From the NCBI GenBank assembly GCA_023128135.1, contig JAGMEO010000001.1:1-29955 (forward strand): a stretch of DNA of 29,955 nt, given 5' to 3'. Position numbers and translations under genes: made by a program. Positions within the stretch are counted from its first letter, which is position 1, and each line of letters begins with the position of its first letter. A model generated the notes under the pieces. It worked only from the letters and a program-made list of their open reading frames with translations. It searched no databases and was not told the origin of the DNA. The stretch comes from Candidatus Bathyarchaeota archaeon. Its GTDB lineage: Archaea; Thermoproteota; Bathyarchaeia; RBG-16-48-13; JAGMEO01. This document shows, one piece after another, positions 3,044-20,749 of this stretch.

Positions 3044-3158
3044 TTCATCACCTAAAGATAATGTGTTTATGAGTAACTTCTATTAAAGAAATTCAGTGTT
3101 AATCGCTATCAACTTTTTAAATTATGAGATCTGTGTTTTTATCTCTAGTCGTGATTTT

Positions 3159-3692
3159 ATGTCCGAAGAAATAATTGAAGCAAGTTTCAAAAAAAGCGGA
3201 GTCATAATTCCATCTCAAAAAGACGCTGATCTTTTGTATAAAAGCGGCTATGGGATTTTACATAAACAAGATGAAGGATCAATTTTAGGATCATGCGAAA
3301 CACTTCACTTAGTTGCTGAGAAACGGCTTCATGTAATTGATAATGAGAACCGTAAGGAACTAAATTTCCCAACGCTGCTTGAAAAGTTCCGAAGTAAAGA
3401 TGCAGAGATATGGACTAGATACCTAATTTACAGGGATCTTAGAAGTAGAGGCTATGTTGTTAGAGACGGATTCAGCTTTGGGATAGATTTCCGTTTATAC
3501 GAACGAGGCAAATATGGGGAACAAGCTGCAAAGTATATTGTCTTTGGTATATGTGAAGGAATTCCGACACCTATCAAGAAGCTTAGTGAGATTCTTCGAT
3601 TCGTTCAAAGTACAAAAAAGAGTCTCATTCTTGCGGTTGTGGATAGGAGAGGTGAGATCGTGTATTATTCACTTTCTAAACTTACTTTTTAA
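3159..3692 (+). CDS. endA: tRNA splicing endonuclease subunit, probably the structural (beta) subunit
   Basis: YLIYRDLRSRGYVVRDGFSFGIDFRLYERG and LILAVVDRRGEIVYY match the EndA C-terminal domain. The catalytic His position reads EQAAKY instead of xHSxY/HAxY. ATG 3159 chosen as start. Confidence 0.88.
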   Translation: MSEEIIEASFKKSGVIIPSQKDADLLYKSGYGILHKQDEGSILGSCETLHLVAEKRLHVIDNENRKELNFPTLLEKFRSKDAEIWTRYLIYRDLRSRGYVVRDGFSFGIDFRLYERGKYGEQAAKYIVFGICEGIPTPIKKLSEILRFVQSTKKSLILAVVDRRGEIVYYSLSKLTF

Positions 3693-17412: not shown

Positions 17413-17514
17413 TGGCGCCGGGAAAGGGATTTGAACCCCTGAGATCCCAAAGGATCACAGACTCCCCTGATTTTTTCTCAAGGCCTGCGCTTTTATCCAC
17501 TCAGCCATCCCGGC
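17413..17514 (-). tRNA. tRNA-Ser(UGA) with 13-nt canonical intron (17464-17476); CCA encoded
   Basis: GCCGGGA..CAGGC-CT-TGA-G|AAAAAATCAGGGG|A-GTCTG, long variable arm GATCC/GGATC, G73. BHL helix CTTG/CAGG. Confidence 0.93.
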
Positions 17515-18960: not shown

Positions 18961-19437
18961 CTACTTTTTTTCTGCTCTCTTCATTGCAATGATACGTTTC
19001 TTCTTTACTCCTACCACTCTTCCTGTTCTTCCAGTGGTTTTAGTCCTCTGTCCTCTAACTTTTAAACCTAACGAGTGGCGAATGCCTTTCCTAGTTTTTA
19101 TTTTCTTCATAAAGTCAATGTTAGCCTTAACTCGGAGAACTAAATCAGAGCCTATTAGATGAGTGTTTTCTCCAGTTTGAAATTCTCTTCGATAATTTAA
19201 AAGCCAATGTGGTATTCCATGCTTGACAGGATCTTTAAGTACCTGCTCAATTTTATTCACGTCTTCATCGTTAATGTGACCAATTCTAATGTCAGGATCC
19301 GAATTTGTGATTTTAATAATCGCGTTGGCAACGTTAATGTTCACTCCCTTAATCTTTGCTAATGCAAAGCCCAATTTCTGAGAGCCGTCTAGATCAGTAC
19401 CATGGATCCTTACAATGTGACGGAGTTCTTTAGACAT
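18961..19437 (-). CDS. rps13: Ribosomal protein uS13
   Basis: RHIVRIHGTDLDG, GIRHSLGLKVRGQRTKTTGR. ATG 19437 follows a GGTGA SD. Confidence 0.96.
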   Translation of the reverse strand: MSKELRHIVRIHGTDLDGSQKLGFALAKIKGVNINVANAIIKITNSDPDIRIGHINDEDVNKIEQVLKDPVKHGIPHWLLNYRREFQTGENTHLIGSDLVLRVKANIDFMKKIKTRKGIRHSLGLKVRGQRTKTTGRTGRVVGVKKKRIIAMKRAEKK

Positions 19438-19596
19438 TTTTTCACCGCTCATTTTTATAATCGAGAATTTTGGATTCTATATAAATCTTTATCATCTATA
19501 AATTTACGAAGTTGTGTCTTAAATGATTTAAATATGATGTTATTGTGGCGCCGGGGAGGGGATTTGAACCCCTGTGACCCTGAAGGATCACAGGCT

Positions 19597-19611
19597 ACCT
19601 GGTGTTTTTGT
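19597..19611 (-). other. Canonical 37/38 intron (15 nt, BHL)
   Basis: ACAAAAACACCAGGT. CTGG/CCAG helix, bulges AA|A and GT|A. Confidence 0.9.
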
Positions 19612-19619
19612 TTCCAGGC

Positions 19620-19641
19620 TTTCGCTGTCAATTGGTGACAA
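19620..19641 (-). other. tRNA intron at 29/30 (22 nt)
   Basis: TTGTCACCAATTGACAGCGAAA. Inner hairpin TGTCA/TGACA, central helix GCGC/GCGA (3 of 4 pairs), bulges AG|T and AA|G. Confidence 0.85.
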
Positions 19642-19656
19642 CTGCGCCATACCAGA

Positions 19657-19684
19657 TTGCCCTTTCATCATCAAGTGACGAAAT
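19657..19684 (-). other. D-loop tRNA intron at 15/16 (28 nt)
   Basis: ATTTCGTCACTTGATGATGAAAGGGCAA. Helix GCCT/GGGC, bulges AG|A and AA|T, 8-bp inner hairpin TTTCGTCA/TGATGAAA. Confidence 0.87.
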
Positions 19685-19724
19685 CTAGGCGACCCCGGCT
19701 GTAAAGTTTTATAATTTCTAATCT

Positions 19725-20749
19725 TTAAACTTCCTTTTGCTTTTTTCTCCAAAGACGTGGATAAGTGCCAATTGGCATTATCACTCTTTCAATTTTTGCA
19801 GCTATACCATGATCTTCTTTCATCATTTGTTCGCTTGACATCATTGATCTTGCTAAAGCAATCAATTCTTCCTTTTGTGTAAAGATTCCAACAATATTTT
19901 GAGGTTTAATTCTTGAGTGTAATTTTAATACGCCTGGGAGAGCAAGACCAGCACCATGGCAAAGTGCATCTACCGCAGAATCGCGAACAAAAATTTTTGG
20001 GGTTAATTGAAATGCGTTTTCAACAGGTTGCACGATCTTCCTGATATAAGATTCGTCTTCTTTTTCTTCCCATAACGAGTAAGCGTAGTTTACATCGTAG
20101 AGGGTTACAAGGCTATCATCTTCTTTAAATGGGCCAGCCTGTGTCCTTCTAAGCTCAACCATATGAGCTCCAGAACCTATTACTTCTCCAATGTCAAAGC
20201 ATAGTTTTCTAATATATGTACCGGCTTGACATCCAACCCTGAAGAGGATATAATTATCTTTAAGTTCCAAGTTTTTTATGTAGTAAATTTTTCTCTTTCT
20301 AAGAACTCTTTTAACAGAGGAACGTAATGGTGGTCTCTGATAGATTTCTCCAACAAATTCATCCACAGTTTTTCTAATTTTTTTTTCCTGTATACTAGTA
20401 TGGAGACGCATGACACATACATATTCTTTCCCTGTTGTAAGAAGTATTCTCATGATTTTTGTAGCGTTTTTTAAAGTAATTGGTAGAACGCCTGTTACCT
20501 TTGGGTTTCCCCGGTTTAAGCCTCTAGGGTTCCTCCGTGTCCAGCACGTTCAATTTTTAAAATACGCTTAACCCACGCTACTACCTCATGACTTGTTGGT
20601 CCTGGCGGCTTATCTAAGTTAATGATTCCATTACGTAGATAATTTTGAATTGGTCTTTTTTCAGGGAAGCAGCCATATGTTAGATTTGTGCCTTCTTCAG
20701 ATTTAACAAGTATCTTTGACTTAACTGTCCATGGGATTAAAATATTCAA
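19725..20749 (-). CDS. cbf5: H/ACA pseudouridine synthase Cbf5; two exons (20749-20524, 20506-19725), 335 aa after splicing
   Basis: Exon 1 ..[24 protein letters not shown]. Removing 17 nt restores G|AC-CCA-AAG ([12 protein letters not shown]) in frame with exon 2 ([19 protein letters not shown] domain). TTG start after a GGAGGT SD. Confidence 0.93.
20507..20523 (-). other. Pre-mRNA BHB intron in cbf5 (17 nt)
   Basis: AGGCTTAAACCGGGGAA. Helix CCCT/GGGG, bulges AG|A and AA|A, inner GG/CC; contains an in-frame TAA. Confidence 0.88.

Follow-up and report, generated by a model that had tools for sequence, protein, structure and literature searches.

A three-intron tRNA-Ser(GGA) gene in a Bathyarchaeia archaeon, with one intron at position 15/16 of the D-loop

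The archaeal bulge-helix-bulge (BHB) motif has two 3-nt bulges flanking a 4-bp helix and is cut after the second base of each bulge, in agreement with the geometry of the canonical intron position 37/38. Multi-intron tRNA genes have been described for Thermoproteales (Pyrobaculum, Thermofilum, Caldivirga) and Thaumarchaeota (Sugahara 2008 and Fujishima 2010, as cited in PMC4090602, PMC4033280 and PMC8450103). Introns within the D-loop are of a kind already known and in general are experimentally established: that of Aeropyrum pernix pre-tRNA-Thr(UGU) was cut in vitro by recombinant EndA with the crenarchaeal-specific loop (PMC3241643), and Methanopyrus kandleri pre-tRNA-Glu(UUC) has a D-loop intron of the HBh' type at 20b/21 (PMC5829648). 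D-arm insertions are reported to be common in Asgard tRNAs (preprint 10.64898/2026.10.13.758758). In the Asgard genome Atabeyarchaeia-1, the tRNA-Ser(GCT) gene (698050-697920) is listed with introns at 698035-698010 and 697994-697977 (PMC11291895 Supplementary Data 4; Valentin-Alvarado et al. 2024), and alignment of CP147779.1 yields the same two introns as that table. The source tabulates coordinates without discussing intron position, and it is the sole explicit published instance of a 15/16 intron that was verified. Among protein genes, a BHB intron is known in the cbf5 pre-mRNA of Crenarchaeota (Watanabe 2002; Yokobori 2009, PMC2738675).

The locus described here was found in a 29,955-nt stretch of DNA (the window, meaning the whole stretch analysed) from an uncultured sediment archaeon of the Bathyarchaeia. 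It is a real serine tRNA gene broken by three short introns, and in itself nothing unusual for the known class to which it belongs. The full account, in which a single-copy Bathyarchaeia tRNA-Ser(GGA) carries three protein-spliced BHB-type introns at 15/16, 29/30 and 37/38, is regarded as highly probable. What mild interest the gene has comes from how deeply its three-intron layout is conserved and from the gap in annotation that it exposes.

The gene and its three introns

The gene occupies 154 nt of the minus strand, from 19699 (G1) to 19546 (A76 of the encoded CCA). Excision of the three introns in silico gave an 89-nt class II tRNA with an encoded CCA, called by ARAGORN as tRNA-Ser(gga) with a 7-bp acceptor, a 3-bp D-stem and a long variable arm. 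The spliced molecule has the anticodon stem CAGGC/GCCUG, G73 and the T-loop GGTTCAAATCC; the gene starts at its 5' end with the acceptor strand GCCGGGG, and the T arm (AGGGG TTCAAAT CCCCT) is followed by the complementary acceptor strand, G73 and CCA. The first-pass annotation had proposed a triple-intron tRNA-Ser(GGA) with introns of 28, 22 and 15 nt, and both the identity and the intron positions are borne out by the ARAGORN call and by the cloverleaf that excision restores. The parts of the gene are as follows (a slash within a sequence below marks a cut).

19546..19699, minus strand: tRNA-Ser(GGA) gene, from ARAGORN on the spliced sequence and from orthologues
19685..19699, minus strand: exon 1, tRNA positions 1-15 (acceptor 5' strand, U8, C9, D-stem 5' strand G10-T13, A14, G15)
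19684-19657, minus strand: intron 1 (I1), 28 nt, position 15/16, after G15
19642..19656, minus strand: exon 2, positions 16-29 (rest of the D-loop, D-stem 3' strand, G26, C27-G29)
19641-19620, minus strand: intron 2 (I2), 22 nt, position 29/30, after G29
19612..19619, minus strand: exon 3, positions 30-37 (G30 C31, anticodon loop C32 U33 G34 G35 A36 A37)
19611-19597, minus strand: intron 3 (I3), 15 nt, canonical position 37/38, after A37
19546..19596, minus strand: exon 4, positions 38-76 (anticodon stem 3' strand, long variable arm, T arm, acceptor 3' strand, G73, CCA)

Standard tools do not find this gene. ARAGORN made no tRNA call when given the unspliced 154 nt, and in the whole window the gene was missed both by ARAGORN and by Rfam at gathering thresholds; at loose thresholds Rfam returned a weak match to the tmRNA model alone, spanning the acceptor and T arm of the tRNA. 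Across the whole assembly (620 kb, 76% complete), RF00005 matched only 19 sites, and many of these matches are 90-126 nt in length. No second copy of tRNA-Ser(GGA) was seen in the assembly, where the other matches to the tRNA 3' exon (the Ser(UGA) gene at 17416-17514 and sites on contigs C36 and C29) are all weaker. When the three introns were compared with the assembly by BLAST, the only significant hits were to themselves, and a structural scan of the genome detected no further gene with a 15/16-type insertion. The tRNA-Ser(UGA) gene (17416-17514, minus strand), which lies 2 kb away, has a canonical 16-nt intron alone and no D-loop intron, so that the isoacceptors of one genome differ in intron content.

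I1 consists of A, an 8-bp hairpin (TTTCGTCA CTTGA TGATGAAA), GGGC and AA, the two hairpin strands being also written UUUCGUCA and UGAUGAAA. Its central helix pairs G10 C11 C12 T13 with the intron GGGC and includes one G.U; the 3-nt bulges are A14 G15/A on the 5' side and A A/T16 on the 3' side. There is no outer helix, as C9/U8 do not pair with C17/U17a, which leaves a relaxed HBh' motif. I2 is laid out as T, a 5-bp hairpin (TGTCA CCAAT TGACA), GCGA and AA. Its GCGA forms 3 bp with C25-C27 and, in this genome, an outermost G24.A mismatch, a pair which is G.U or G-C in relatives to give 4 bp in 48 of 51 orthologues; the bulges are A28 G29/U and A A/G30, and the outer helix has at most 1 bp. In I3, C32-G35 pair with CCAG, with bulges AA/A and GT/A and no inner hairpin. 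As read directly from the sequence, none of the three has the strict hBHBh' form (an outer helix of at least 2 bp plus an inner helix), and in the precursor the 5' strand of the D-stem is paired to I1 and its 3' strand to I2. All three introns are thus relaxed forms, HBh' or, for I3, hBH-like. The same reading agrees with the first-pass description of the 15/16 intron, which had given it an 8-bp inner hairpin and G10-T13 as central helix. A box C/D guide within I1, of the kind hosted by tRNA-Trp introns, was considered and rejected. Such a conserved guide would span some 50 nt or more between a box C (RUGAUGA) and a box D (CUGA); in I1 AUGAUGA is present, but the intron is only 28 nt long and has no CUGA, and the motif is missing from orthologues. 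Rfam snoRNA matches were noise, with E above 1.

A thermodynamic model of the full precursor gave a minimum-energy fold that contains none of the three splice helices and prefers other pairings. Forcing the splice helices costs +2.7 (I1), +6.5 (I2) and +6.4 (I3) kcal/mol, so that of I1 is the cheapest to form and those of I2 and I3 are dearer, these differences being small and model-dependent and leading to no conclusion on splicing order. In the minimum-energy fold CACCAGG of I3 (19597-19611, minus strand) pairs with UCUGGUA of the D-loop (19650-19656, minus strand) and not with CUGG of the anticodon; as CUGG occurs at both exon sites, I3 has two possible partners. We infer that the splice motifs really form in the precursor.

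Conservation, distribution and the 15/16 junction

The gene was found in two independent assemblies with an identical S13 protein. The JGI 3300008516 contig has the whole tRNA gene, introns included, unchanged, and none of its three differences falls within the gene. From window position 19708 onward, a stretch that takes in the whole gene, the Logan SRR26080961 contig shows 100% identity. A scan of genome contigs with the S13 protein as query gave no match. Full-length matches to the gene occur in relatives at the level of genus, family and order, and exon 4 shows 84-94% identity in many relatives. When the mature sequence was aligned to these and further loci with gaps allowed, the introns of many genomes fell at the same three positions.

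A regular-expression collection yielded 51 distinct genes with the 15/16, 29/30 and 37/38 layout, nearly all from Bathyarchaeia, with intron lengths of 17-31 (I1), 13-27 (I2) and 10-22 nt (I3). Across these genes the intron sequences drift and the central helices stay paired. At position 10 of the I1 helix (n=51) the pairs are UA in 25, UG in 17, GC in two and GU in one, with six unpaired, and position 12 is CG in 48 and UA in three. Position 25 of the I2 helix (n=51) is AU in 34 and CG in eight, and position 24 is GU in 24, GC in 24 and GA in two. Covariation in I1 was also evident in a MAFFT alignment of 12 sequences, at 12:42 (CG 9, UA 3), 17:40 (UA 7, GC 5) and 18:39 (UA 7, CG 3, AU 2); the score was reached by none of 500 shuffles, and when partners were slid by 1-3 columns the paired cells fell from 75% to 46-57%. 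The splice helices are maintained by compensatory change in relatives.

A covariance model comprising tRNA positions 1-29 (exon) and I1 had this site as its only match in the genome, at E=4e-12. This single match, the unchanged copies in the other assemblies and the covarying helices put the gene far beyond coincidence. The same model matched 51 of 151 sampled genomes of the class (47 at intron-including length), representing 16 of 31 families, together with six genomes from other classes of the phylum. An exact-pattern scan with one genome per species returned 93 stretches, nearly all titled Bathyarchaeia/Bathyarchaeota; the minority comprised Asgard genomes (Atabeyarchaeia-1, LC30, HMA_bin2.83 and three Baldrarchaeota), two Nitrososphaerales and Hecatellales. 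The Asgard and Nitrososphaerales genes are serine tRNAs too, often also with the 29/30 intron, and the GCT isoacceptor bears a 15/16 intron in the relatives G009, G084 and G020. In much of Bathyarchaeia, tRNA-Ser(GGA) as a rule has the 15/16 intron, and Ser(GCT) often has it too. The earlier view that position 15/16 is rare does not survive these counts (the 51 genes with the same layout, the 51 of 151 class genomes and the 93 stretches), nor does the suggestion that it is perhaps uncatalogued, as the tRNA-Ser(GCT) intron of Atabeyarchaeia-1 starting from gene base 16 is present in PMC11291895 Supplementary Data 4.

One related tRNA-Ser gene (L043; G032:C4:95470-95527 and downstream) has four introns, at 15/16, 29/30, 37/38 and 59/60, which is one above the 'maximum of three' quoted in older literature.

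Serine tRNAs of relatives that are intron-free or otherwise interrupted have A14 G15 Y16, and this fixes the junction at 15/16. The alternative of another register for the D-loop intron (13/14 or 14/15), with a different mature D-loop, draws on the relatives G001, G015 and G034, where the intron ends in AG and sequence alone permits 13/14, 14/15 or 15/16, and on some relatives in which gap-tolerant alignment of the mature sequence to their loci put the intron at 13/14. The intron in the window ends in AA, however, and here only 15/16 gives the A14 G15 U16 ... G18 G19 of intron-free serine tRNAs; moreover, a 4-bp helix and two 3-nt bulges with second-base cuts lead to G15/A and A/U16 in 51 of 51 orthologues, so that another register is considered very improbable. 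Still less credible is a decaying or non-functional tRNA-like locus whose insertions are never removed. Such a locus would be in line with the failure of standard tRNA finders to call the gene and with a predicted precursor fold that disfavours the splice motifs, yet the canonical exon positions are kept across the whole class while the introns drift with compensatory changes, the assembly has no second copy of the gene in view, and the splicing enzyme is encoded in the genome. A functional gene with its D-loop intron at 15/16 is accordingly the reading retained.

Neighbouring genes, promoter and the cbf5 intron

The tRNA gene lies between cbf5 upstream and rps13 downstream, as had been stated at first pass, with rps4 and rps11 following rps13. 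The features around it are as follows.

19725..20749, minus strand: cbf5 (pseudouridine synthase), exon 1 20749-20524, exon 2 20506-19725
20523-20507, minus strand: cbf5 BHB intron, 17 nt; joining 20524 to 20506 opens the frame
19722..19740, minus strand: putative tRNA promoter, a purine-rich stretch and TATA-like TTTAAAGA, proposed from its sequence; the box is kept in the JGI variant
19485-19478, minus strand: rps13 TTTATATA box, 25 nt before the ATG
18961..19452, minus strand: rps13, ATG at 19452

The joined exons of cbf5 give an open frame of 336 aa that runs through GHGGTLDPKVTG with no stop. The tRNA had been placed 26 nt after the cbf5 stop: with the TAA at 19727-19725 the spacer is in fact 25 nt, and it is the first base of the tRNA that is the 26th. 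The distance to rps13, formerly put at about 110 nt, is 93 nt from the CCA end to the ATG (19452). In relatives the tRNA usually begins 20-70 nt after the cbf5 stop, and the order L14e-cbf5-tRNA-Ser is kept in most of about 60 loci with enough flank; rps13 is directly downstream only in close relatives and a few others.

The TATA-like TTTAAAGA (19729-19722) contains the cbf5 stop TAA and starts 30 nt upstream of tRNA base 1, with TTTAAA at -30 in this genome. In 97 distinct orthologous upstream regions YTWAWD boxes concentrate at -45 to -31, and a box start at -38..-24 was found in 52 of the 97 compared with seven of 97 in a control window. A similar box is present at -28 to -42 in about 10 of 17 other tRNA genes of this genome. 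On the basis of the conserved positions of the TATA-like box in orthologous upstream regions, the tRNA probably has its own promoter; rps13, with its TTTATATA box, is likely to have another and to be near-leaderless. A nearer TATA-like sequence, TTATAAAA (19714-19707), was rejected as the promoter, since just 7 nt separate it from the start of the tRNA and it is mutated to TCATAGAA in JGI 3300008516.

There is no oligo-T terminator after the tRNA here, so that the transcription units are not delimited by sequence alone. A single precursor holding cbf5, the tRNA and perhaps rps13, in which the cbf5 mini-intron and the three tRNA introns would make four EndA substrates and the tRNA would be released by RNase P and RNase Z, would suit genes that share a strand, are only 25 nt apart and have no oligo-T run between them. 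The conserved cbf5-tRNA-Ser neighbourhood and the junction design CCTAG/A...GGGRAA/ common to the cbf5 intron and I1 also speak for it. Nevertheless, the TATA-like box is conserved across spacers of 2 to 78 nt and irrespective of the upstream gene, and comparable boxes precede the other tRNA genes mentioned above; in addition, the rps13 linkage is lost beyond close relatives and rps13 has a box of its own. One common precursor is therefore viewed as unlikely, if with an appreciable chance of being right, and a separate promoter for the tRNA is preferred. Read-through from cbf5, which may occur, and an internal promoter are compatible with each other.

The cbf5 intron, of a kind known from Crenarchaeota, lies in the gene next to the tRNA and would be cut by the same enzyme as I1. 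It differs from I1 in being part of an mRNA rather than a tRNA, and resembles it in having the exon CCTAG/ and the intron ends A-G...GGG(G or A)AA/. Across Bathyarchaeia the exon ends are CCCTAG or CCTTAG for cbf5 and TCCTAG or GCCTAG for the tRNA, and the intron consensus is AGGCC...CCGGGGAA and AGCCA...GCGGGAAA, respectively. The cbf5 central helix covaries, CCCT occurring with GGGG and CCTT with AAGG; inspection by eye of the cbf5 intron and I1 within genomes revealed no consistent pattern of co-variation. Much of the likeness arises because each intron must pair with a shared exon word, and the bulge letters AG/A and AA/N are found in I2 as well, so that common descent of the cbf5 intron and I1 is only a lead. 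The two may possibly be paralogous, or their similarity may simply be forced by the exon.

A broader reading has two parts taken together: that the 15/16 and 29/30 introns are old and vertically kept since at least the ancestor of most Bathyarchaeia, perhaps shared with Nitrososphaerales and some Asgard, and are not recent mobile insertions like those of Thermoproteales; and that the 17-nt cbf5 intron is a paralogue of the 15/16 intron which landed on CCTAG about 0.8 kb away. As a conjunction this is thought to be rather improbable. If true, the paralogy between the cbf5 intron and I1 would for a first time in Archaea tie a tRNA intron concretely to an intron of a protein gene.

Splicing machinery and comparison with known systems

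Two EndA paralogues are present in the assembly.

3096..3692, plus strand: EndA paralogue that lacks the catalytic His (beta-like, structural subunit), with both EndA domains
Contig C67, 7023-7586 (C67:7023-7586): catalytic EndA subunit, with matches to crenarchaeal catalytic subunits

The C67 protein matches the catalytic subunits of A. pernix at 2.6e-43 and of S. tokodaii at 1.2e-42. It keeps the active-site Tyr/His/Lys, and its loop 'ipKPKt' is aligned to 'veKPRg' of A. pernix, in which the Lys of the loop is needed for D-loop and relaxed introns (PMC3241643). The EndA of the window is 28% identical to that of C67 and has GEQAAKY where C67 has GMDHSPY, with no His at the aligned site. To judge from these alignments, the two paralogues fit a two-subunit enzyme of broad specificity; EndA of the (alpha-beta)2 and epsilon2 types can cut relaxed or non-canonical motifs.

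No RtcB (PF01139) match was found in this 620-kb, 76%-complete assembly; RtcB is present in 11 of 12 relatives, the same genus included. The gene shows breaks of its own in relatives, after about residue 53. The RtcB at G007:C11:90883-93678 is a single 1032-aa open frame with an insert of about 1.4 kb that is intein-like, and the parts of that of G001 lie on two contigs (C148:7064-7231 and C27:20614-21756), with about 2 kb between the tRNA-Ser locus and the short N-terminal part downstream of it. A tRNA-guanine transglycosylase (PF01702), looked for with regard to archaeosine at G15, was likewise not found in the 76%-complete assembly.

The following course of events is proposed. In the primary transcript the D-stem would be unable to form, with strand 10-13 held by the 3' part of I1 and the D-stem 3' strand together with 26-27 held by the 3' part of I2. 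Each of these pairings would make a 4-bp central helix whose two 3-nt bulges carry the cuts (AG/A and AA/N), and C32-G35 would be paired to CCAG of I3. [quoted passage not shown] The four exons would be joined by an RtcB-type ligase, after which the D-stem and anticodon stem could fold. The tRNA would most likely be transcribed from a BRE/TATA promoter of its own that overlaps the stop codon of cbf5, and rps13 from another. The three-intron layout would be inherited, being common to dozens of Bathyarchaeia and partly to some genomes of Nitrososphaerales and Asgard. The anatomy of the sequence, the cloverleaf obtained by splicing in silico, the conservation with its covariation and the two EndA subunits are what the analysis shows; that splicing takes place, in what order and with which ligase, and the promoter, are what we infer.

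As standard tools miss an essential tRNA, Bathyarchaeia genomes may be scored as being without tRNA-Ser(GGA); with the small covariance model of this work the gene is recovered in a third of the class. The orthologues also make a clean data set with which to study the persistence of non-canonical introns and the order in which overlapping splice motifs are used.

The tRNA-Ser(GCT) of Atabeyarchaeia-1 is similar in that it is a serine tRNA with a 26-nt intron at gene base 16 and an 18-nt one at 29/30, and differs in belonging to another phylum, in being another isoacceptor and in having no canonical intron. With the D-loop introns of A. pernix and M. kandleri the present I1 shares a location inside the D-loop and the need for an EndA with the crenarchaeal-specific loop, and the 20b/21 intron of M. 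kandleri is of the same relaxed HBh' class. Unlike both, I1 is at 15/16, on the 5' side of G18G19, with the D-stem 5' strand as its central helix, and occurs together with another intron, which ties up the D-stem 3' strand. The multi-intron tRNAs of Thermoproteales and Thaumarchaeota, as far as they are described in the citing works, are comparable in having up to three short BHB-type introns, one canonical and the others non-canonical with relaxed motifs, and in occurring in hosts with a two-subunit EndA; 29/30 and 37/38 are on the published position lists. In the same works the non-canonical introns of Thermoproteales are described as recent gains, with similar sequences across different tRNAs. 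Here, in contrast, no intron paralogue was found in the genome, and the three positions are kept in one orthologous gene class-wide; this retention of positions with drifting sequences differs from the 'recent transposition' picture drawn from Thermoproteales.
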